Source: a virus
Lineage: Duplodnaviria; Heunggongvirae; Uroviricota; Caudoviricetes
Length of the DNA: 45,535 nucleotides
Direction: 5' to 3' (one strand)
Virus record (IMG/VR): IMGVR_UViG_3300029305_011610
Coordinates: 77,395-122,929 of that record
In this document: positions 1,631-38,321 of the stretch, in pieces
Layout of the letters: each line of letters starts with the position of its first letter
Numbering within the stretch: position 1 is the stretch's first letter
Made by a program: the position numbers and the translations under genes
The notes under the pieces: generated by a model
Seen by the model: only the letters and a program-made list of their open reading frames with translations
Databases searched by the model: none
Told to the model about the DNA's origin: nothing

Positions 1631-1809
1631 CATATGATAATGTAAGCCAGCAGACATTGGATGCCGTTGAAGAATGGGCATCGTACTACAGAGCCAATCC
1701 ACATCGTTTCGCTAAAGACATACTTAACTTAGACCTTCGTTTATTTCAAAAGATACTGCTTGTATTAATGAATACAGCTGTGGCCTTTGTGTTTATCGCC
1801 TCGAGAGGT
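1621..1809 (+). CDS. terL: Large terminase exon 1
   Basis: WASYYRANPHRFAKDILNLDLRLFQKILL...FIASRG. Ends at GGT in the middle of Walker A, which continues as LGKS at 2067. Confidence 0.9.
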
Positions 1810-2066
1810 TAACTGTGGCCTCACCGCATAGTAATATGCGGACAAAATAAGCGGGCAAAATCGGTGAACGCTAAGTCTTATGATACGCCAACACCGAGGT
1901 AACCAGAGACTCACTGGCACCGTAACGCATAGCGGTTGTGCAACAAGAGGAGCAATAATACCGCCACGAGTGTCCGCTCTCCGAAATTATTCGGAGAAAA
2001 ATATATGCTGAACTTATAGGAAACTATAAGAGCTATCGGATAAAAAGCCGATAGGTTAACAACATG
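1810..2066 (+). ncRNA. Group I intron 1 in terL (257 nt, no ORF)
   Basis: Exon ends in U and intron ends in G. P1 is GAGGU/GCCUC with a U.G wobble. P7-like CCGTAAC-GCATA...TATGC-TGAAC. Removal restores ASRG|LGKSF. Confidence 0.9.
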
Positions 2067-2165
2067 CTAGGAAAATCTTTTCTCTCTGCAGTATTTTGCG
2101 TCATTCGCGCAATACTGTATCCAGGCAGCAAAATAGTCATAGCGTCTGGAACTAGAGGGCAGGCT
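2067..2165 (+). CDS. terL: Large terminase exon 2 (99 nt; absent from the ORF track)
   Basis: [33 protein letters not shown], typical terminase ATPase sequence following Walker A. Confidence 0.9.
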
Positions 2166-3225
2166 TAATTATGGGTCGCCGTTATAGCAATATAACGGGC
2201 AAATTCTACTGAATTGCTGGGACACCCTTAGAGCTTTATCACCAAAACGGAATGGCGAATAGCCATATACGGCAATGGTATGAAAACGATAAAGATTGGG
2301 CAATCAGCAGCCAAGCCTCGAACAGAGGAAGGTTCAACGACCATCCCTATATGGGAGTAGCTACGCAAGTTGCTGGCGTGGCGAAGTGGTAGACACCCTA
2401 ATAAAGGGTGAAGATATGGTCTCGTCTTTGCAGAAATGCAAAGTGGTAAAGGTTACCATGCCGAGGTGGCGCTCGGCACAAACTATTACAATATGATTAT
2501 TGAGGAATATATGGGAATTGTAAAAGATTTAAAGGGATTGAAATTCAATAGGTTGACTGTAATCGATCGAGCAGAAAATGACAAGAGCGGTCGTGCGCGA
2601 TGGATATGCAAGTGTGATTGTGGAAATATTAAAGAGGTTGTCGGCAAATCACTAACAAGCGGACATACAAAATCTTGCGGATGTTTAAATAAGGAAATCG
2701 TTAGCCAGCTATCTGTTCATGATTTACGTAACAAAAAATTTGGACAGCTCACGGTTATCGAGAGAGGTGACGACTACATAAGCCCAAAGGGGAAACACCA
2801 TGTTAGATGGGTCTGCAGGTGTGATTGTGGGACTACTGTATTAGTTTCTGCAAATCAACTAACTTCTGGGAAGACAAAATCTTGTGGATGCTTATCGCGA
2901 AAAGGTTCTCACATCGTCCATGGAGGATGTTATGACAGACTTTATAAGGTGTATCATAATATGAAAAACCGTTGCTATAACGAAAATTCTAAAGACTATA
3001 AATACTATGGTGGCCGTGGAGTAAGAGTATGTGAGGATTGGTTAAATGACTATTTGGCATTTAAGAGTTGGGCATATAAAAATGGGTATGACGATAAAGC
3101 TGAATTTGGAAAGTGTACTTTAGATCGAATCGATGTAAATGGTTCATATAGTCCTGAGAATTGTAGATGGGTAGATATGGAAGTTCAATCAAATAATCGT
3201 AGAAATGTAATAGCTAAAAGAAACG
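2166..3225 (+). ncRNA. Group I intron 2 in terL (1060 nt) carrying an HNH-type endonuclease ORF
   Basis: Core motifs GAATTGCTGG, AATCAGCAGCCAAG, GAAGGTTCAACGACCA, GAAGATATGGTC. U/G boundaries. Removal gives TRGQA|INVLEKIML. Confidence 0.9.
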
Positions 3226-3239
3226 ATAAATGTCCTTGA
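2511..3239 (+). CDS. Intron-encoded HNH-type homing endonuclease
   Basis: Two LTVI.R....W.C.CDCG...L.SG.TKSCGCL repeats, YYGGRGVRVCEDW, and TLDRIDVNGSYSPENCRW...QSNNRR. GAGGA RBS before ATG 2511; the ORF track starts at 2436, inside the ribozyme core. Confidence 0.85.
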   Translation: MGIVKDLKGLKFNRLTVIDRAENDKSGRARWICKCDCGNIKEVVGKSLTSGHTKSCGCLNKEIVSQLSVHDLRNKKFGQLTVIERGDDYISPKGKHHVRWVCRCDCGTTVLVSANQLTSGKTKSCGCLSRKGSHIVHGGCYDRLYKVYHNMKNRCYNENSKDYKYYGGRGVRVCEDWLNDYLAFKSWAYKNGYDDKAEFGKCTLDRIDVNGSYSPENCRWVDMEVQSNNRRNVIAKRNDKCP

Positions 3240-3755
3240 AAAGATTATGTTAGAGCTCAAACCCAAATCGCCAGCATTGGCGTTTGAAATAGACGAAAAA
3301 CAAACAAAAATGAATGGTACAAATGCCCAAATAGTATTTAAGAACGGGTCTTATATTAAGGTTGTTACATCTGGGGATTCGGCGCGCGGGAACCGTGCTC
3401 ATATCCTTCTAATCGATGAATTTAGACTCGTTCCCAAAGATACAGTTGATACCATTCTAAGCAAATTTTTAATTAGTAATAGAATGCCAGAGTATCTGGA
3501 TCTTTCTAAAGAAGAGCGTGAGTTAGAGTATGCAAAAGAGGCAAACAAAATCTTATACCTCAGCAGTGCTTACTTCTCAGATTCATGGGCTTATAAGAAA
3601 TGTGAAGATACTTTTAATGCAATGGCAGAGGGGAATATGCGACATTTTGTATGCGGGTTCCCTTATCAAATCGCAATTGAAGAAGGGCTTTTAAGCGTTG
3701 AGTCCGTTGAGGATCAAATGCGAGAGTCCGACTTTAGTGAAGTAAAGTGGAGCAT
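3226..3755 (+). CDS. terL: Large terminase exon 3
   Basis: INVLEKIM...ARGNRAHILLIDEFRLV (Walker B), LYLSSAY (motif III), ending in KWS plus AT. Confidence 0.9.
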
Positions 3756-4120
3756 AAACATTTCTGTGCTCCTTAAACCTATTGAACCCTGTCCGCTTGC
3801 AGGGGGTGTCACAATGTGATGCTAACAGGGAAACAGTGACTGTATTACAAAAGAAGGTTTGCTAAATCATAAATGAATAATGATAATCGCCCAAGAAAAA
3901 TACTCATGGATATACCTTTTGTGTAATATAAAACTCAATCCTGTGCCAAGCCGAGCAGTGCTCGGAAGGTGCAACGACTATCGAACGGGACTGCATAGCC
4001 AGTTAACCTAGTAGAGTACATCGGAGATAAGCACCGATGGAAGCAGTAGGGCTCATAATATATGAGCATGATATAGTCTAAACCCTATTAAATACCACGA
4101 AAGTGGGGGTAATAAAAACG
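3756..4120 (+). ncRNA. Group I intron 3 in terL (365 nt, no ORF)
   Basis: P1 GGAGCAU/GUGCUCC. P10 CAUUUC pairs with the 3' exon GAAAUG. Core GCTAACAGGG, AATCCTGTGCCAAGC, GAAGGTGCAACGACTA, GATATAGTC. Removal gives KWS-M|EMGAEWFG. Confidence 0.9.
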
Positions 4121-5102: not shown

Positions 5103-6585
5103 GAAAACGGCTACAAGAAAGAAGGTTCCGGAAGTAAAACCTGAACCAAAGAAGTCAGAGATTGAAGGTTATATCGGAATCTCAAGTAAGTTTGCTACCC
5201 TTAACAAGCTGATTACTCGAGATTTAAATAATAATACAACAACACCAACCTTCTCTTTATACACAAAGGATAATATTAATACATACTTGTCCGATCCTTA
5301 TCGTTATGAGAAGGAACTTCGTAAGGCAGTTGTTTATATTTACAACGCAAGCCCTCATTTTAGACGAGTTATAAACTATTTTGCTGCGCTTTCCGACCTG
5401 TCATATATCATTTCTCCGCATAGAATTGATCCAAAGAAAGCTAACGCATCAACATTAACACGTAACTATCGTAAGGTATCTGATGTTGTGTCGTCCATGA
5501 ATTTAAAATCTCAAGGCCCTAAAATTCTAAAAGTATGTCTGAGAGAAGACACATATTATGGAACAATGTGGGTGACTAACGAGAACATCATTTTTCAACA
5601 ACTGCCAAGCGATTACTGTTCAATTTCAGAAATCGAAGGTAATGTTGCTAATGTTACATTCGACTTTTCTTATTTTGACTCAAGACAAGCTTTGTTAGAG
5701 TATTATCCGCCAGAATTTCAAAAAAAGTACAATGTGTACAGAAACAATAGAACAGAGAAATGGATCACACTCGACTCCCCTACCTCTTTTGCCATAAAAG
5801 CAAATTCAGATATTTGGGATTATGCTATACCGCCGTTCGCTGGCGTGCTTCGAGAGATATATGACTTAGAAGACTACCGACAACTAAAACTATCCAAGAC
5901 AGCTTTGGAAAACTATGCAATGCTTGTCATGGATTTAGGGATGAATGAAGAAGGCAACTTCCAAATGGATCTTCCAAAAGCGAAAGAGTTCTGGAGAAAC
6001 CTAGACGCAGTACTGCCTGACGAAGTTGGTTCCGTCCTTTCCCCTATGCCAATCAATAAGATTAGCTTTGAAAAGTCTCACACTGCGAATACAGACACAA
6101 TAGCAGAAGCCGAACAAAATGTGTTCACAGCTGCCGGCGTTTCCTCGTTACTATTCAATAATGACAAAGCATCTGCAAATGCACTGCTTCTGTCTATTAA
6201 GGCCGACCAAGCTATCACATTTGGCATTGTGAGAAGTATTGAAGATATGGTTAATCGTTATATTCAGTCTCTGAGTTTTGGTAAAAACTTTAAAGTTACC
6301 TTCTTGGACGTCTCTCCGTATAACAGAGACGAGGTTGGCGATATGTACTTGAAAGCAGCACAATATGGCCTGCCAACGGTATCCGCGTATGCGGCTTCCC
6401 AGGGACTTCCTCAAGAGGACTTCGATTCTATGAATTTCCTTGAAAATGAAATCCTTGGAATTAAAGACGCTTTTATTCCTTTACAAAGCTCTTCTACGCA
6501 GAGCGCCTCCGCAGAGCCAGGAGCTCCAACGAAGGACGCTAAAGATTTAACCGAAAGCGGTGAGCAAAACCGAGAGGATGCATAA
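5071..6585 (+). CDS. Portal protein
   Basis: 504 aa, GTG start with RBS, directly after terL. Size and synteny fit a portal. Confidence 0.75.
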   Translation: MAKSQSQAGTKKTATRKKVPEVKPEPKKSEIEGYIGISSKFATLNKLITRDLNNNTTTPTFSLYTKDNINTYLSDPYRYEKELRKAVVYIYNASPHFRRVINYFAALSDLSYIISPHRIDPKKANASTLTRNYRKVSDVVSSMNLKSQGPKILKVCLREDTYYGTMWVTNENIIFQQLPSDYCSISEIEGNVANVTFDFSYFDSRQALLEYYPPEFQKKYNVYRNNRTEKWITLDSPTSFAIKANSDIWDYAIPPFAGVLREIYDLEDYRQLKLSKTALENYAMLVMDLGMNEEGNFQMDLPKAKEFWRNLDAVLPDEVGSVLSPMPINKISFEKSHTANTDTIAEAEQNVFTAAGVSSLLFNNDKASANALLLSIKADQAITFGIVRSIEDMVNRYIQSLSFGKNFKVTFLDVSPYNRDEVGDMYLKAAQYGLPTVSAYAASQGLPQEDFDSMNFLENEILGIKDAFIPLQSSSTQSASAEPGAPTKDAKDLTESGEQNREDA

Positions 6586-6770
6586 TGGAAAAATTCTTAT
6601 ATGTTTTTGATGAGGCTACTAGAGATCGATTATTAAAAAGAAACTTTAAACTATTAAAAAGTAATGAAAAAGATAATGTTTATGTTTTTATAAATGATCC
6701 CGAAGCTATGATTGGCGAGGCCGTATTTGAAAGTGATACAATTTTGCTTTCTAATATGCTGACATTTTAA
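6585..6770 (+). CDS. Small hypothetical head-module protein
   Basis: 61 aa, coupled to the portal stop (TAATG), GAGGA RBS. Confidence 0.7.
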   Translation: MEKFLYVFDEATRDRLLKRNFKLLKSNEKDNVYVFINDPEAMIGEAVFESDTILLSNMLTF

Positions 6771-6782
6771 ATAACAAACGAC

Positions 6783-6814
6783 ATGACCCGTACTGCTTGC
6801 AGTACGGGCATTTT
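6783..6814 (+). terminator. Stem-loop, probable intrinsic terminator
   Basis: CCCGTACTGC-TT-GCAGTACGGG followed by CATTTT. Confidence 0.6.
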
Positions 6815-6823
6815 AGTTAGGAG

Positions 6824-8374
6824 GTGATTTCGATGCCAAAGGTTGCTCGAATGACATACTCTTCTAGTCTCAATTCCTTGTGCGAAGTAAACTCATCTTT
6901 TGATACGGGTATTTTGCGAATTGCATATACCGGTAAGAACAGAAATGGTAGCCATATTTCAAAAGAAGTATTCGAAAAGTGTATACAGACAATGTATAAC
7001 TGCCCTATTGTATGCAATTACGATCGAGAAATTGACGATCTTGGTGGCCATGATTTAGAGGTAGTGCGAGATAGTAAAGGAAATCTAAAGTTAATCAACG
7101 CCACTGTTCCAGTTGGTGTTGTTCCAGAAAGCAGCAAGTATTTCTGGGATATCGTTGAAGAGAATGATGGAAGTACAAAAGAGTATCTATGCACAGATGT
7201 TTTAATTTGGAAGCGCCAAGAAGCGTATGAGAAACTAAAAAATGACGGCATCGTTGCACAGTCTATGGAGATTACCATAAAAGATGGTGAAATGATAGAC
7301 GGCGTATACACTATTTATGATTTTGAGTTCACTGCATTTTGCCTGCTTGGAGAAGACCATGAGCCATGTTTTGAGAGTGCAGCTCTCAGCTTATTCTCCT
7401 ATGATGAGTTTAAAAGTCAAATGGCAGAAATGATGAGCGAACTAAGAAAAACTTTTACCTTAACCACTCCCTCACTCGAGGATGGTAATAAACACCCACT
7501 CAACTTACAGAAGAAAGGAGATGAGAAGGTATTGGACGAAAAAATTGCATTGGTTGCAGAGTACGGCTTAAACATTGATGATCTTGATTTTTCTTTAGAA
7601 GATATCACTATCGAAGAGCTGCGTGAAAAATTCGAAGCTATGAAGGCTAATGAGCCTGCAGTAGATGACCCCACTCAGTACACCGCGTTGTATGCTCTGT
7701 CTGGCCAGATAGACGAAGAAATTCATCGTGCGCTGAGAGCAGTGACTGTCGAGCGTCCTTGGGGCGAAGCTCCACGATATTGTATGTTCGACTATGACAT
7801 CGCTCTGATGGAACTGTATTGTCATGATCTAGAAGATGATTGGAAACTGTATGGTTTTAAGTTCGCAATGAATGGCGACCGCGTTGAAATCGACTTTGAA
7901 AGCAAGAAGCGTATGAAGTTCGCAGTAGTTGAATTCGATGAAGGCGAACAAGCTATTCCTTTTGCTGATGTATTTGTAAACATTGTCGATAGAGCAACCG
8001 CAAACGATACCCAGTGGTCTGAAAAGTATCAGGCTATCTCCGACACCGTTGTTTCAATGGAGAGTGAACTTGGCGAACTCCGTCAATTTAAGACCGACAC
8101 CGTAAAGGCAGCAAAGGACGCCGAACGTGAAGAAGTCTTCGCTCAGTTTGAAGACTTAGTAGGTGTCGAAGAATTTGAAGTTCTGAAAGAAAACTGCGAA
8201 GATATGGATATGGACGCACTGCAGGAAAAATGCTTTGCAATTCGTGGTAAGCGCGCAGTGTTTACTAAGGCATCCGAACCCCGTAGTCCTAAGTTCGTAG
8301 TAGACAAGGCAAAGAACCAAGAGTCTAGCCCCTATGGCGATCTGTTTACCAAATACCCCGTAAGCCATCTGTAA
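6824..8374 (+). CDS. Prohead protease/scaffold fusion
   Basis: N-terminal protease-like domain (NRNGSHISK, QSMEI, FTAFCLLG...PCFESA) and an acidic coiled-coil C-terminus; upstream of the capsid genes. Confidence 0.7.
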   Translation: MISMPKVARMTYSSSLNSLCEVNSSFDTGILRIAYTGKNRNGSHISKEVFEKCIQTMYNCPIVCNYDREIDDLGGHDLEVVRDSKGNLKLINATVPVGVVPESSKYFWDIVEENDGSTKEYLCTDVLIWKRQEAYEKLKNDGIVAQSMEITIKDGEMIDGVYTIYDFEFTAFCLLGEDHEPCFESAALSLFSYDEFKSQMAEMMSELRKTFTLTTPSLEDGNKHPLNLQKKGDEKVLDEKIALVAEYGLNIDDLDFSLEDITIEELREKFEAMKANEPAVDDPTQYTALYALSGQIDEEIHRALRAVTVERPWGEAPRYCMFDYDIALMELYCHDLEDDWKLYGFKFAMNGDRVEIDFESKKRMKFAVVEFDEGEQAIPFADVFVNIVDRATANDTQWSEKYQAISDTVVSMESELGELRQFKTDTVKAAKDAEREEVFAQFEDLVGVEEFEVLKENCEDMDMDALQEKCFAIRGKRAVFTKASEPRSPKFVVDKAKNQESSPYGDLFTKYPVSHL

Positions 8375-17407: not shown

Positions 17408-18643
17408 ATGGCAGATATTTTGCTTTCTTTTGGTTTAAAGCATAATGCTGCGTTAGACGAAAATTTAGCCGGTGATTTAAGTGCGGCAATAAAAAAAGTC
17501 GAAGCAAGCGCTCCAAAGATAAAAGTCGGGGTGCAAATCGACCCAAATTCACTAAATACGTTTAAGACACAACTTACAAGAATTGTTAACAGTGTTACTA
17601 CTGGGACCGGCAAGCCGGTTTCTTTGAAGATAGATGGGCTTGGTAATATTACTGCTGATGCAGATAAGGCAGCCAATGCTGTGAAAAAGGTTGGTGATAC
17701 AGCAAAACAAACAGCAGCAAGCGTTAGTTCTGTAGGAAATAAGGTTAGCGCCACGTTTAAAACAAAAGCTCTTGACCAACTGGACAAAAAAATTGAAAGA
17801 CTAAGGAAGAATCTCCAAAACTGGTCTGCGGCAGCAAATTCCGATAAGACTGCCGGATATTACGACGAACTTACAAAAGCATTAAATAAATATATTGAAG
17901 TAAGAAAAAGAATAGAATCGTTTGATGTTGGTAAAAAGAACGGCGTAATAAACTCAAATTTAGAGTCCGACATGATGTCGGAGATAAAACTCATTGACGA
18001 TACCGTTAGCGGAGCAACGAGAGAGATTAAGGACGCAGATAAAGCAACAAAATCTTGGGGGGGTAGACTTGGCAGTTTGGCAGGAAAGTTTACCACATGG
18101 CTGTCTGTTTCACAGGTCATAATGCAGATTTATACTGCGCTCAAGAAAATGGTAACAACCGCAATCGAAGTTGATACTGCGATGACCGAATTAAAAAAGG
18201 TTACCAACGAAACAGACGCTACGTACGATAAGTTCTTAGATAACGCCGCAACTCGAGCAAAAGAAGTTGGTGCTACGTTAACTGATGTGGTTAATGCAAG
18301 TGCGTCCTTTGCAAGACTTGGCTATGATATTGACGAAGCATCTAATCTTGCGGATACCGCAATTGTATACAAAAACGTAGCAGATGATATTGACTCAATT
18401 GACGTCGCGTCGTCTAGTATTATTTCGACAATGCAAGCTTTTGGGGTTGAAGCTAATAATGCAATGAGCATCGTTGATAAATTCAATGAGGTTTCAAACA
18501 ATTTCGCCATTACGTCTGGTGGTCTGGGTGAGGCATTGCAGAGATCTGCAGCGGCAATGAATGCCGCCGGCAACACTTTGGATCAGACTGTGGCATTGGT
18601 AACAGCCGCTAATACGGTAGTTCAGAACCCTGAATCTGTGGGT
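17408..18643 (+). CDS. Tape measure protein exon 1
   Basis: TP901-type tape measure core (AMTELKKVT, FARLGY, DKFNEVSNNFAIT, ALVTAANTVVQNPESVG); ends in GGT. Confidence 0.9.
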
Positions 18644-19924
18644 GGACTTGCGCCCAACAGCGTGGTAACACGCTGGAAGTAGATAGCTATATCGGTTAAA
18701 GGCTGGAGGCAGCTCAGACCGAGGAAAGATATTGTAGTACGCTCCCGTGGTAGTTAGGATGGCCACGGGTTTTATTATTTAATGAGAAGGTGAAACGATT
18801 AATAAAACAGGTGTAAGCATACCATGTGAAACATGCGGAAAAATGATATATAAAACGAAATATCAGTATGAGAATAAATCTCATCATTTTTGCTCAAACA
18901 AATGCCAGGCAATAAAAAGAAGAGAGCTTGCTTTTGAATATAGGCCTTGCGAAGTGTGTGGTTCCGAAATGTATTTATCAAAGAAGTCAACAAAACGTTT
19001 TTGCTCAAATGAGTGCCAACACATTTGGCAACAGGGCAATACAGGATTTAAGAACTCACGTTTCAAAGGTGGATATGTCGTCTGTGAAACGTGTAAAAAG
19101 GAGTTTTTAGTAGGACAATATATATACGAAAGCGGCAGGCATCATTTTTGCTCACAAGAATGTAGGCAAGCGTGGTATGCGAATGTCTGGTCTCAATCTG
19201 ATGATTGGAGAAACGAGTCAAGAATAAGAGCTGCTTCGCTAATGAAAACTAACAAAGTTACGGCCCAGACTCGTCCGCAGGTATTAGTCAACGAATTTTT
19301 GGAAGAAATGAATATACCATATATCAATGAAAAAACATACGATTATTACTCTGTTGACAATTATCTTATTGATCAAAATTTAATCATTGAAGTTATGGGG
19401 GACTATTGGCATAGTAGTCCATTAAAATATGTAGAAAAGATTAACGATAAGCAACGGCATATCATTTCTAGATATAGCTAAAAAAACATACATTAAGAAT
19501 TATTATAATATTGACATTCTATATTTATGGGAAACTGACATAATTAAACGCCCAGAGCTATGCAAAAAGCTGATTAAGCTTTATATAAGTAATAACGGTA
19601 TTTTAGAAAATTATCATTCGTTTAATTATAGTTTAGAGCACAACATTTTGACATTAAATAAAAATATCATTATACCAAAACAAGAATTAGAGAAAATCGC
19701 GTGCTAATGTCCTAACCATTTTGCTCGCGGTATGTACTACAATAAATCCGTAACGACTGTAATACTCATTATGGTAACATAATGAGTTCCGCTATCCCCC
19801 GTCTCGGGTGAAGATACAGTCTGAACTCACACGATAACCTAAAAATGAAATGTGAGAGATAGCCAGAAATGACTATCCGCCACTTTTGTGGTCAGTACCG
19901 GGTTGCCGGGAAAGTAACAGATTG
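18644..19924 (+). ncRNA. Group I intron 4 in the tape measure gene (1281 nt) carrying a degenerate endonuclease ORF
   Basis: P1 UGUGGGU/GCCCAACA. Core TATCGGTTAAAG, GACCGAGGAAAG, CCGTAACGACTG, GAAGATACAGTCTGAAC. The 11-bp stem TATTGTAGTAC (18730)/GTACTACAATA (19734) encloses the ORF. Terminal G at 19924. Confidence 0.85.
18798..19707 (+). pseudogene. Intron-encoded Zn-finger/PD-(D/E)xK (Vsr/DUF559-like) endonuclease, frameshifted near 19476
   Basis: Three CxxC...FCSxxC repeats and DNYLIDQNLIIEVMGDYWH. The frame stops at 19481, but the +1 frame 19477..19707 continues AKKTYIKNYYNIDILYLWETDI...C*. Probable ATT start at 18798 after AAGGTGA. Confidence 0.75.
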
Positions 19925-19943
19925 ACAACACTAAAAACAGTAT
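19925..19943 (+). CDS. Tape measure exon 2 (19-nt micro-exon)
   Basis: ACA ACA CTA AAA ACA GTA T = TTLKTV plus the first base of Ser. Joining gives NPESVG|TTLKTVS|MYLRAAKTEA. Confidence 0.85.
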
Positions 19944-20268
19944 CAGACGAAAGTCTGCGGTACGCGCGTACAGCAATGTGCGTGAAAAACAACCCACTGA
20001 ATTGCTGGAAATTCCCAAAGCCATTAGCGCTACAACGTAGAGATGAAACGCTCAAGCGTGAATGCGGCGAAAGCAGAAAAAAGCTAATGGATGGCATATG
20101 GTTAAATCCTAAGTGCTGTTATAACGGAAAATCAGCAGCCAAGCCTCGAACAGAGGAAGGTTCAACGACCATCCTGAGAAGGAGTAGGGTTACATCCCGA
20201 AGTGGTGGGCGTCCCAAGTGGATGAAGATATGGTCTGCTCTCATATGAAAATATGAGTTAACACAAGG
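19944..20268 (+). ncRNA. Group I intron 5 in the tape measure gene (325 nt, no ORF)
   Basis: Core GAATTGCTGG, AATCAGCAGCCAAG, GAAGGTTCAACGACCA, GAAGATATGGTC. The U/G rule places the junction at GTAT|CAGAC...AAGG|CAATG. Confidence 0.85.
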
Positions 20269-23200
20269 CAATGTACCTCAGAGCCGCTAAGACAGAGGCA
20301 ATTGAGGCTGGAGAGTCGGTCGAAGGTATGGCTGATAGCACTTCCGAGCTTAGAGAAGAAATTTTGGCTTTAACCGGTAATCGTGTTGATCTGATGGCCG
20401 ATGATAAAAATTTTAAAAGTACATATCAAATTTTAAAAGAACTCTCAGAAGTTTGGGATAGCTTAACTGACGTATCTCAAGCGAACATTCTGGAAATGAT
20501 AGGAGGCAAACGCAACGCAAATATTGTATCTGCCTTGCTCGAGAACTTTTCTCTTGCAGAAGAAGTCCTCAAAACTTCGATGAGTTCCTCTGGTTCTGCA
20601 ATAGCAGAAAACGAAAAATACCTTGAGTCAATTCAAGGTCATATATCTCAGTTCAAAGCGGCATTTCAGGCTCTGTCAGAGACTGCAATCAATAGTGATT
20701 TAGTCAAAGATATTATTGATATCGGAACCGCTTTTTTAGAGGCTGCAAACTCAGTGGTTAAATTTGTGGATGAAACAGTAGGTTTAGAAACCGCAATAAA
20801 GTCAATTCTGGGTTTAAAGGCGGCAAATCTATTAGGTGGATTATTTGATAAGACTCTAATTTTATCTGACAAGCAGCAAGAAAAATTCAGCAAGTTTGGT
20901 GAAGCAGTTCAAGGCGGTATAAATGGAATCTATAGTATTTTTGTCGAAGCAACAGATAACGGCGTAAATTTCTTCGATGTACTGATTTCCAAAGTTGGCA
21001 AGACGAAAATGGCACTCTTAGGCCTCGTCGCCGTTGCCGCAACGGTTTCTGCTCTATTTGGTGCTTATCTAAAACTTGAAGAGCAACTTGATACTAACTT
21101 CCATAGCGATCATGGAAAGTTTGAAGATGAGTCTAAATCTATAAAGAAATATAAATCAGAAATTTCTGACTTAAAGAAAACACTTGAGGATAATAGCTCT
21201 TCGACAGAAGATCGTGCGGACGCAGAAGAACGCTTGCTAGAAATACAAGACGATCTGATCTCCACATATGGAGAAGACGCAAAAGGATTAAACCTCTTAA
21301 AGTTAAGCTCTGATGAAGCCGCCGAGGCGCTTGATAATTTAATAAAAAAACGTGCCGAGTTTTATTTATCCGAAAACAAATATGTAGCGAAAAAATATGA
21401 AAGAGGCATTGAAGGACAAAGGACTTTTTCCGCAAGCGCATATTCGTTTGGTATAGATAAAGATTTCGTAAGTGAAATGCAAAGCATTGCAGAAGCTCAC
21501 GGGATATCTTTCTCAAAGAATCTTGGCGGAGAAATTGAGTTCTCATTTAAAGGAGATCCAGCGGAAGCCGCAGAAAAATTAAAAGCATTCCGTAAAGAGG
21601 TTCATGAGCTAGAAAACGAGTGGTTTCTAGACGATAAAGACGCAAACGCAGACGTATTGTTAAAAAGCATAGATGGAGCTGTAGCTCAAGCCGAAAGATA
21701 TACAACAGAATTTGGAGATGGGTATAAGGAGCTCAAAGATTTCTGGGCGGCGATCACAGGCGACGACGGGGCTTCTGGAGATCAAGAAAGCTCCCTCATA
21801 GAGGCTTCTAGAACTTTTGACAGCTACGTTGACTCTCTGTCAGCGTTTAAGACAGAGCAATCAGCTCTTACAAATGCATTAAAGGAGCAGGGCGGCGCAG
21901 GAACTCTTACGCTGGAAACTTATAAAGCTTTAGTTGCTGAAACCGAAGATTATGCTACTTGTCTTGAGTACGAGAACGGTGTAATGCGTATAAATGCTGA
22001 TGCAGCAAATGCTATGCTAGAAGCTAAAATGCTGACCGAGGCGTTAGATATAGAAGGGCAAATCATAAAGGAATCAGCACAGTATGAAGCGAACGCAAAA
22101 GAGATAGCAAAACTTAATGCTAGATATAAATCTTTGTCGGATGATGAAAAGAGTCAGTTAGAAACTCTTAAGAATAGCCAAGTAGAAATACAAAAGACTA
22201 TTCAACAATATAGCTTGCTACGCGCTGAGTTACTAAACATGAATAGCGCATATTCTAAATGGAAAGCCGCTCAAGACGCACCAGAGACTGGTGATATGTA
22301 CGACGAAATGAAGACCGCTGCGAGTCAAATTAATGATGCTTTAAAAACTGGTAAAACCGGTACTCTAAAATATCAGACTGCTGTCAAAATGCTTGTCACT
22401 TTGGAAGACCCTAGCCCTAAGCAAGTTCAGGATTACATGAAGAAGCTGAATCGCTATATTACTGACGATAGTTCTGGTGCAAAAAACTTTATAAATGACA
22501 TGATAAACAAGGGTCTCATGGAGTCCTCTACAGGCGGACGAGCCACATGGAATGACGCGTGGCTTAAGGACGCAAGCATGACGATAGATGAGATTTGTAA
22601 TATCATGGAAATCACACCAACTATGGCAAAGGCTATTTTCGGTGAACTCGAAGAATATCACTTTGACTTTAGTTGGGATGAAGACGATTTTAATAATGTA
22701 ATTCTTGAAGAACAGCTACGAAAAATTCAAGAAGAAGTTGAAAGATATAAGAAAGCTATTGCAGATAATCCTAAGATTGCGCCAGAAATAGATTCCACTA
22801 CATTAGATGATTATGTTGCAAGAGTAACGGAGGCAACTAATAAACTCAAAAAGCTAAATGATAAAGGTGCAAGCAGCTATGACATCACTCCTATTAAAGA
22901 AGAGATTGAAGCTTTATTAAGCGAAGGGCTTGAGCTCGGAATAGATCTGGAAAGCATTGGCTTCACAGAAGAGTTCCTATCAGGCCTTGGGTTAGATATT
23001 CAAACAGCAGACGTTCAAGCTCAACTAACAGCTGTCGCTGGGGATTTGGACAATATTGCCGCTAAAATCACAGCAGTTGCTGCAATGGCAATCGGTGATC
23101 TTGGTGCTGCCGCAGCAAGTAATATGCTATATGTTGTTTATAGTAGACTTCAGGACATTCAAAATTTCTCTATAGACGACAAGACATTTAATGTAACAGC

Positions 23201-25229
23201 TTTAGTAAATAATGGTTCTGGCAGCTCATCAAGCGATGGAGGTTCTTCTAATTCAGCTTCTGCGAGAGGTACACTTAATGCTCGTGGCGGTAGAACCTTG
23301 GTCGGAGAGCTTGGCAGAGAAATAGTGGTAAGCGGGAATCGATACTATACTGTTGGCGATAAAGGTGCTGAGTTTGTCAACCTTAAAAAGGGAGACATTG
23401 TGTTTAACCATATCGACACTGAACGCATCCTTGGTATGTCAAGCAAAACTCATCAAGGGCAAGCTTTTGCTGGAGGCACATTTGGCAAAGGTTCAATAGC
23501 TGACCAATTAGATGCTGCAAAAGAATATGCAGAAGCCCACGGTTTACCGACTATTGTCAACATTGAAGTAAAGCCTGCTGGTGATAATAATTCTGCTGCC
23601 GCAATACAGAATTCGTCTAAAGATGAAGACCAAGCGTATAAGCGAGAGTCTGGTTATGGCTCTCTAGGCGTCATACCGCCTCCTCTCCCTACTCCTCATA
23701 ATCAAAAATCAGAAGGAGGCGCAACGGATTTAACCGGAAATGGTGCCGGCGCTCCAGGGTCTGAACAAGCAAAGAAAAACTTCGAAGAAGCATATAAAGA
23801 GCATCAACACTTCCTATCGATGGATCAAGAAGAAACAGCAGAGTATCTCGACTGGTTAGAGAGTGCTTACAAAGATGCCTTCGAAGAAGGTTCCGAAGAG
23901 TACTGGAAATATGAAGAAGAAGTCTACAAAGGCCGTCAAGACCTATTTAAAGATATGCTTGGAGACAAAGAACATTTCATTTCCATGCTTGTTGCTGATG
24001 AAAAAGATGCATCTACTATTATAAACAATTACCAGTTGATTATAGAGGCCGTAGAAGCGGAATTGGAAAAAGCTTATGAGTCAGGTCTTGATGACAACGA
24101 CGACTACGTTCAAGAACTAAAAGACAAGCTTGTTGACTACAAAGATGAAATCAAATCTATAAACGATGAGATTACAGAGGATGCAAAAGAATCCTACGAA
24201 GATCTGATTGAGTATCGTATGGATATGCTCAAGCAAGAACTTGAGGATGAGAAAGAAAAACTCAATGAGCGTGTCAACACACTGCAAGATTTCTATAGTA
24301 AGCAAAAAGACATGTTAAAAGATGTCTACGATGAAGAAAAGTATCTTGAAGACCAAACAGAGAAGCAGAAAGCTGTTTCTGATATCAGGGCAGAGCTTGC
24401 AATGCTTGAAAACGATGATTCTGTTAGCGCACAACGCCGCAAGCTTGAATTGCAAGAAGAGCTGAAAGAAGCAGAAAAGGAACTTGCCGATTTCGAAAAA
24501 GAGCATGCTCTCGAGATGACACAAGACATGTTAGATAAGCAGCTTGAAATGCAAGAGAACAATCTAAACGCAGAGATTGATAACATTGACGAGCAACTTG
24601 AAAACGAAAAAGCTATACGAGATCAAGCAATTAAAGATCTGCAAAATGGGGATTTGGCGCTATTTAACGCCATGCTTGAGTATAACGCGTTCCATGGCGA
24701 CGGTAACGATCAAACAGTAGTTGATCTTTGGACAGATGCTTATGAGGCATTGAGTAAGTATTACGCACTTTACAATAAGCTGTATGAAGGCATGTACTTG
24801 GAAAACGTTACCGATGCAAAAGGTTTACTACCTGTTCCGGTTGGTATCGGATATGCAAGCGGCACATACAGCGCGACACCAGGTATTCATGAAATTGAGG
24901 AGATGGGCGCTGAGTATATCTTCGAATCTTCTAACGGTAGAAAATATCGTATGTTTAGAGGCGATGAGAAGGTACTTAATGCTACTGCGACAGACTTCTT
25001 ATATAAGTTTGCTAATAGCGGTGGTAAAATTCTGGAGGGCATGGTTTCTGGAGCAAGATCTCCGATCCCGTCTAATGTAGTCTCAAACAATCATATTTTT
25101 GAAATCAAAACAGGTGACATTATCGTTCAAGGTAATGCAAGTGAACGAACTGTCTCTGAAATTCGCAGAGCGCAAAGAGAAAGCGTAGACTTCATGCTAA
25201 AAGAGTTTGGACGTCTACAAAGCAGATAA
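20269..25229 (+). CDS. Tape measure exon 3; spliced CDS 6216 nt = 2071 aa
   Basis: MYLRAAKTEA...STYQILKELSEVW...GGKRNAN, long coiled coils, C-terminal GYASGT...PG...E.G.E motif. Exon sum 1236+19+4961 = 6216, in frame. Confidence 0.9.
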
Positions 25230-38196: not shown

Positions 38197-38321
38197 TTAT
38201 ATAAGGCTTAGCCGTCTACTATACACATACTTTCCCGCACCTCTTGGTGAAAATAAGCTGTTAGGACACGGTCTAGTAGGATCCCCGAAAAACCGTGAAG
38301 CGAAATAAGGACGGTATTTTT

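Follow-up and report, generated by a model that had tools for sequence, protein, structure and literature searches.

Group I introns in tape measure protein (TMP) genes are already known, and so are tandem introns around a very short exon. Prophages of the Bacillus cereus group carry the group I introns TMP-IVS1, TMP-IVS2 and TMP-IVS3 at three sites in the TMP gene (Tourasse and Kolsto 2008, PMC2504315). For vibriophage ICP1, Barth et al. (2023, PMC10448857) describe a TMP transcript that has four exons plus three introns, established by RNA-seq and reverse transcription-PCR, and call the TMP gene "another frequently interrupted gene." Introns 2 and 3 of orf142 in the Staphylococcus phage Twort flank an exon of 23 nucleotides (nt) that can be skipped (Landthaler and Shub 1999, as summarized in PMC10136302 and PMC3073962). 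In the 23S rRNA gene of Coxiella burnetii, a 34-nt exon lies between introns of two subgroups, and skipping has been observed there as well (PMC10136302). Mini-exons of fewer than about four codons occur between group I or group II introns in mitochondria, where gene callers miss them (PMC10352661). Here we describe the TMP gene of a ~123-kb gut phage, which is very probably a single gene whose precursor RNA contains two independent self-splicing group I introns (introns 4 and 5) only 19 nt apart. It lies in the final 45.5 kb of an IMG/VR record that is 122.9 kb long and rated complete (IMGVR_UViG_3300029305_011610, positions 77,395 to 122,929). We refer to this whole stretch of 45,535 nt as the window and give coordinates in it unless another record or locus is named.

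Exon junctions of the tape measure gene

The initial annotation had divided the TMP gene into two large exons and a 19-nt micro-exon, with the second junction splitting a Ser codon. When we rechecked the sequence and the reading frames, its description and its intron and exon coordinates proved exact (Table 1), including the spacing of 19 nt and the division of the Ser419 codon as T/CA. Joined in this way, exon 1, the micro-exon and exon 3 form one open frame of 2071 amino acids. Omitting the micro-exon shifts the frame and leads to a stop at residue 446, in line with the truncation that had been foreseen for a skipped product.

The joint reads VQNPESVG-TTLKTVS-MYLRAAK. Aligned with intron-less homologs, it is gap-free against both the continuous TMP of Brevibacillus phage Sundance (IQDPKIVGTALKTVSMRLRG) and that of Enterocloster phage PMBT24, and 71 of 80 related loci from viral contigs are uninterrupted through the joint segment. 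It is the micro-exon that makes the conserved GTxLKTVSM motif whole. For exon 3, tblastn likewise shows continuity with relatives. Identity to annotated tape measure proteins is 37 to 41%, and the 122.9-kb record holds a single TMP copy.

Profile searches gave the same picture on either side of the joint. Exon 1 matches Pfam PF10145 (PhageMin_Tail) with 57.4 bits (cutoff, 33.2), covering only positions 4 to 125 of the 201 in the profile, and in the Sundance TMP the same profile runs unbroken across this position (2 to 199). Searched with Pfam by themselves, the 140 residues at the start of exon 3 did not yield the rest of PF10145. In the PHROGs family phrog_4211, "tail length tape measure protein," exon 1 corresponds to profile positions 419 to 770 (E = 8e-52) and exon 3 to positions 804 to 1147 (E = 3e-35), directly after the exon 1 part. 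The two-intron arrangement with its 19-nt micro-exon is far beyond chance. Removal of both introns would yield an mRNA for the 2071-residue protein, in which the most conserved PhageMin_Tail motif is restored.

Gene callers split this TMP into open reading frames (ORFs) of 424 and 1652 amino acids, and seven residues are thereby lost from the motif that is conserved best. The peptide VGTTLKTVSMYLR spans the predicted spliced joint.

The same split is present in the annotation of Thomasclavelia phage TR-TP1 (our locus L007; PQ571309.1, 23364 to 28534), where an "HNH endonuclease" is flanked by two "tape measure" coding sequences. Between these, 296 nt can be aligned with intron 5 at about 70% identity, and comparison suggests that the TR-TP1 TMP is most likely also one intron-split gene.

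The two introns and the endonuclease gene

Both introns had been read as group I introns in tandem, an assignment borne out for intron 5 by Rfam and for intron 4 by comparative analysis. Intron 5 matches Rfam RF00028 over the full model (positions 1 to 253) with 71.8 bits, against a gathering score of 50, and its fold beats all 100 shuffled sequences (z = −3.4). In its P1 helix, the guide GUAC (19960-63) pairs with the exon sequence GUAU (19940-43), with a U19943.G19960 pair. The P1 loop is filled by a GAAA-capped hairpin (19944-19957, CAGAC-GAAA-GUCUG).

The frame of the micro-exon remains open for 107 codons through most of intron 5 (19925-20248), a length matched by 20 of 20,000 shuffled sequences. 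The same frame closes after 51 codons in the homologue at locus L014; we rejected it as a coding feature on this ground, and its openness is probably due to chance.

Part of intron 5, the peripheral P5 extension at 20000-20169, is 80 to 83% identical to unannotated stretches in four ~88-kb Staphylococcus phages. One match is PP212901.1, 56906-57074 (L009, 4001-4169); PT1-4 is classed as Sextaecvirus. This similarity suggests a related, unannotated intron in those phages. At E ≤ 0.01, Rfam reported nothing in the interrupted relatives L006, L007 and L009.

Although intron 4 scores below the Rfam threshold, we accept it as a group I intron; its membership rests on covariation and not on a curated Rfam score. 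We collected its relatives from TMP loci (L049, L014 and L084) and from a scan of viral contigs for the conserved 3′ domain, which gave 72 loci, 14 of them ORF-less introns of about 300 nt. An alignment of 16 sequences (A1) was then evaluated with helices P1 to P9.3 mapped from the window and with controls in which the pairing partner was slid by 1 to 3 columns. Canonical pairs filled 95% of the cells in the proposed structure, compared with 30 to 38% in the slid controls, and compensatory double changes were seen at 52 pairs, compared with 11 to 19. The long-range P3, which reaches across the ORF, varies among GC, AU, UA and CG, and does so in all six of its pairs. Covariation is also present in P4, P5, P7, P7.1, P9, P9.1 and P9.2. 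P1 tracks the exon, being UGGGU/GCCCA in the window and GUCGGU/GCCGAC in L049, L100 and L126. P6 covaries by eye among the three ORF-bearing copies: the window has UUGUAGUAC/GUACUACAA, L014 has AUGUGGC/GCCACAU, and L049 has a helix of 14 bp. The terminal G19924 is invariant in A1, and the U at −1 is present.

Introns 4 and 5 share only 32 nt at 75% identity, around J8/7-P7, and judged by this comparison they are of different lineages.

The loop of P6 in intron 4 contains an ORF that matches the Pfam family zf-FCS and "HNH/homing endonuclease" families of PHROGs, mainly over its zinc fingers. It also has a weak match (E = 0.28) to PDB 3r3p, a "mobile intron protein," and its nuclease type is uncertain. 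Relative to the intact ORF of 307 amino acids in the L049 intron, it is frameshifted near 19470-19476: the translation of its second part, DIAKKTYIKNYYNIDILYLWETDI..., matches ...DKAKHTYIKNNYNVEILYLWEDDI... of L049. Because of this frameshift, the endonuclease gene of intron 4 is broken in this phage, and the ORF does not encode an intact homing endonuclease. Intron A of L014 has a related ribozyme with another ORF, which encodes CapR/DUF723 zinc fingers and DUF2726.

Related tandems and insertion points

We looked for the arrangement in other phages. An identical 1612-nt insert occupies the place of the window tandem in four contigs (L014, L016, L019 and L021), which come from four metagenomes. 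The insert is made up of a 1263-nt intron (intron A), a micro-exon of 19 nt (ACAACATTAAAAACCGTAT) and intron B, which is 75% identical to intron 5; the micro-exon differs from that of the window by two synonymous changes. Because the four contigs keep the tandem with synonymous changes only, the arrangement must be inherited and the micro-exon under coding constraint.

Other combinations also exist. In L049, the intron at the first site (site A) stands alone, and its endonuclease gene is intact. An independent tandem is found in L127, on the reverse strand and within 400 nt of the start of the reversed locus: two intron-4-lineage introns lie only 17 nt apart, with the micro-exon AATGCCATGAAGACGGT; the second intron lies inside the Val codon, and the joined reading is NAMKTVTLRIRG. 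Since the two introns of L127 are alike, we would regard it as the better candidate for exon skipping of the Twort type. In L106, two intron-4-lineage introns enclose a 58-nt exon. An exact-pattern scan at the 5′ end of intron 5 found no case of that intron at its own site without intron 4, and only the four L014-group contigs matched.

The intron 4 lineage is almost confined to TMP genes, and intron 5 comes from a different lineage. Among 73 intron-4-lineage copies, 68 have homology to this TMP in the sequence that follows them. The initial annotation had considered group I introns much rarer in tape measure genes than in DNA-metabolism or terminase genes; that they are rare there is contradicted by these copies as well as by the B. 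cereus prophages (PMC2504315) and ICP1 (PMC10448857). An exact scan of 185,579 genomes for the intron 4 family pattern returned no B. cereus copy; all matches were to contigs of gut or environmental metagenome-assembled genomes.

To compare insertion points, we express them in the residue numbering of the window TMP (Table 1). At residues 412 to 415, the computed positions of the L014-group contigs and of L127 are displaced by their second intron. Two relatives of intron 5, in L006 (3455-5089) and L074 (~6418-7010), are inserted inside the Thr417 codon, 5 nt upstream of the window site, and in both the exon base at −1 is apparently a C paired with G (AAGAC/GUCUU) in place of the U.G pair. Elsewhere in the TMP, intron 5 relatives are found near residue 494 in L007 and at residue 527 in L044.

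A stretch of about 60 nt that codes for VQxxxxVG-xxLKTVS-MRLRG holds no fewer than seven different insertion points, which two ribozyme lineages use. We suggest, tentatively, that this stretch is an unusually dense landing zone and that precursors with two ribozymes only 19 nt apart (this phage and the L014 group) or 17 nt apart (L127) result from its density. The tandem itself would have originated in two separate invasions of this ~60-nt segment, which would be a target of many such elements.

The window contains further RNA features. Rfam reports three more group I introns in the region of the large terminase gene (1800-4100), the first two of them only ~126 nt apart (Table 1). It also reports an RT-18 RNA (RF03021) at 38238-38309, with 66.6 bits against a gathering score of 41.3.

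Table 1. Positions of the exons, introns, helices and intron ORF described in the text, of intron-4-lineage insertion sites in the TMP, and of the terminase-region introns
Feature	Position	Strand	Description
TMP exon 1	17408..18643	+	412 codons; ends GTG GGT (Val-Gly); U at −1
Intron 4	18644..19924	+	group I (by comparison), 1281 nt; ORF in P6 loop; terminal G19924
Intron 4 P1	18639-43/18652-56		UGGGU/GCCCA; U18643.G18652 at 5′ splice site
Intron 4 P2	18658-64/18669-75		
Intron 4 P3	18682-87/19791-96		long-range, across ORF
Intron 4 P4	18692-97/18717-22		
Intron 4 P5	18702-05/18710-13		
Intron 4 P6	18723-24/19748-49 and 18731-40/19734-43		
Intron 4 ORF, part 1	18843..19481	+	212 amino acids; repeated FCS-type zinc fingers and start of nuclease domain; TAA at 19479-81
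Intron 4 ORF, part 2	19474..19706	+	~77 amino acids, +1 frame; continues endonuclease
Intron 4 P7	19755-59/19817-21		
Intron 4 P7.1	19764-73/19778-87		
Intron 4 P8	19798-801/19805-08		
Intron 4 P9	19826-31/19851-56		
Intron 4 P9.1	19858-62/19873-77		
Intron 4 P9.2	19880-83/19888-91		
Micro-exon	19925..19943	+	19 nt, ACAACACTAAAAACAGTAT; Thr-Thr-Leu-Lys-Thr-Val and first base (T) of Ser419
Intron 5	19944..20268	+	group I, 325 nt, without ORF; terminal G20268
TMP exon 3	20269..25229	+	1653 codons, counting the 2 bases that complete Ser419; starts CAATG
Intron-4-lineage site	residue 364 (before NNFAIS)		23 copies
Intron-4-lineage site	residues 412-415		~22 copies: 17 direct, four L014-group contigs and first intron of L127
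Intron-4-lineage site	residues 422-425 (after RLRG)		16 copies
Intron-4-lineage sites	residues 406, 419 and 467		remaining copies
Terminase-region group I intron	~1800-2030		Rfam, 37.6 bits
Terminase-region group I intron	2157-2443		Rfam, 83.5 bits
Terminase-region group I intron	~3800-4099		Rfam, 22.1 bits

Splicing, its alternatives and known systems

In the model that we favor, the TMP gene would be transcribed as a precursor holding both introns, and the two ribozymes would each find their 5′ splice site by way of a short P1 that includes a U.G pair; this P1 is UGGGU/GCCCA in intron 4 and GUAU/GUAC in intron 5. The initial annotation had proposed that the micro-exon serves both as the 3′ exon of intron 4 and as the 5′ exon of intron 5, and that this sharing could force an order of splicing. 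The double role stands, but base pairing forces no order, because P10 and P1 use different nucleotides of the micro-exon. The possible P10 of intron 4 pairs G18650, U18649 and U18648 with micro-exon nucleotides 2 to 4. P1 of intron 5 uses the last 4 nt of the micro-exon (5 nt in L014, where a synonymous ACC adds a C-G pair), and about 11 nt remain free between the two pairing sites. The possible P10 in L014 has 4 bp and is in another register, so that the P10 pairing of intron 4 is weak and not conserved in detail. With the pairings at opposite ends of the micro-exon, either order of splicing is probably possible.

Order might arise in other ways. Steric interference between the folded ribozymes is possible; whether it imposes a set splicing order at spacings of 19 and 17 nt is doubtful, although it may do so. 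Intron 4 contains an in-frame stop 13 codons in, and the micro-exon frame continues without a stop through 101 codons of intron 5. Ribosomes could run into intron 5 once intron 4 is removed, and translation could add to the ordering. Few TMP copies are probably needed per virion, and the gene may tolerate several introns for this reason.

Several observations weigh against this model. With RF00028, window intron 4 scores only 14.9 bits (E = 1.2, over 19704-19835), below the Rfam threshold; its score is low because an ORF of about 1 kb splits P6. Among its ORF-less relatives, L121, the only one to appear at the E-value threshold, matches the whole RF00028 model with 35.5 bits (E = 7e-6), itself under the gathering score of 50, and 11 others were not reported by Rfam at the gathering threshold, where the only report was of an unrelated second intron in L108. 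The pairings with the micro-exon are short, with only 4 bp in P1 of intron 5 and 3 bp in P10 of intron 4. As the record was assembled from a metagenome and is classed by IMG/VR as a provirus, the phage could be defective. Splicing, its efficiency and its order are what we infer here; the reading frames, folds, homology and recurrence are there to be seen in the sequences.

We considered whether the micro-exon might be skipped frequently or in a programmed manner, with exon 1 ligated to exon 3 to give an N-terminal TMP fragment of 446 amino acids, possibly regulatory. There is precedent in the partly skipped exons of 23 nt in Twort and 34 nt in Coxiella (PMC10136302 and PMC3073962), the exon here has only 19 nt, and the skipped product is defined (412 + 34 residues). 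We nevertheless consider this improbable. The route to skipping through a "single large ribozyme," proposed for the similar introns of Twort (PMC10136302), is unlikely here, the two introns being unrelated apart from 32 nt; the locus shares the short exon with the Twort type and lacks its pair of highly similar introns. Stepwise skipping through the distal 5′ splice site is also unlikely, since the intron 5 guide GUAC cannot pair with the GUGGGU that ends exon 1. Skipping would remove three quarters of a protein that is essential, and the coding constraint on the micro-exon, seen as synonymous changes only, also speaks against it; the skipped form would be a minor by-product at most.

That the interrupted TMP gene is a decaying pseudogene of a defective provirus is very unlikely. 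The frameshift in the intron endonuclease and the provirus class fit such a history, but once an intron is fixed it normally goes on to lose its endonuclease, with no effect on splicing. The three exons are open over 2071 codons, the window copy keeps its ribozyme helices intact, and the sister lineage represented by the L014 group keeps the arrangement under purifying selection.

The suggestion that no splicing takes place, and that translation of the ORFs at 17408-18682 and 20271-25229 gives two distinct tail proteins, could draw on an ATG at 20271 that happens to start exon 3 and on the two "tape measure" coding sequences annotated on either side of the endonuclease gene in TR-TP1. We give it hardly any weight. 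The break interrupts a Pfam domain that relatives have in one piece, and the 19 nt lying between the two ribozyme folds code for exactly the seven residues that are missing. The ATG itself is the conserved Met of the SM(R/Y)LR motif, and the purine run AAGG ends only 2 nt before it, nearer than a ribosome-binding site usually lies. We also rejected one large intron, or a twintron, spanning 18644-20268, as exon 1 joined to exon 3 is out of frame.

With two independent introns spliced from one TMP precursor as the model retained, the locus represents no new kind of element or mechanism. It is part of a natural series in one gene context, comprising genes with no intron, with an intron at site A only, and with tandems around exons of 19, 17 and 58 nt. 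This series could be used to test the limit of ribozyme spacing, the role of splicing order and when exons are skipped, questions studied so far only in Twort, Coxiella and engineered Tetrahymena pairs (PMC10136302).

Among TMP genes, the closest parallel is with the B. cereus prophages (PMC2504315). There, too, phage-type group I introns occupy several TMP sites with P1 adapted to each site, some introns have lost the endonuclease gene, and prophage E33L has two introns in one TMP gene. The hosts differ, as the phages described here are of a gut Clostridia type, and our scan did not support a close sequence relationship; PMC2504315 reports no two introns only 19 nt apart. With ICP1, our locus shares a multi-intron TMP gene in which endonuclease content turns over while splice junctions stay, as in intron A of L014. 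ICP1 has a Gram-negative host, and splicing, which is demonstrated there, is predicted here.

Very short exons between self-splicing introns, overlooked by gene callers, are also a feature of mitochondrial genes, although those are organellar and their splicing is often protein-assisted (PMC10352661). The Coxiella case resembles ours in having two dissimilar group I introns around a short exon, but it concerns a bacterial rRNA gene, without a reading frame or coupling to translation. Twort orf142, like the TMP gene, belongs to a phage and has tandem group I introns on the two sides of a very short exon, and it raises the same question of inclusion versus skipping. The introns of Twort, however, closely resemble each other (IA2), a likeness believed to let them cooperate, and they interrupt a different gene. 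What is modestly new here is the density of insertion points in a 60-nt segment of the TMP gene and the length of the enclosed exons: at 19 and 17 nt, they are shorter than the 23-nt exon of Twort, the shortest phage case that we found in the accessible literature.

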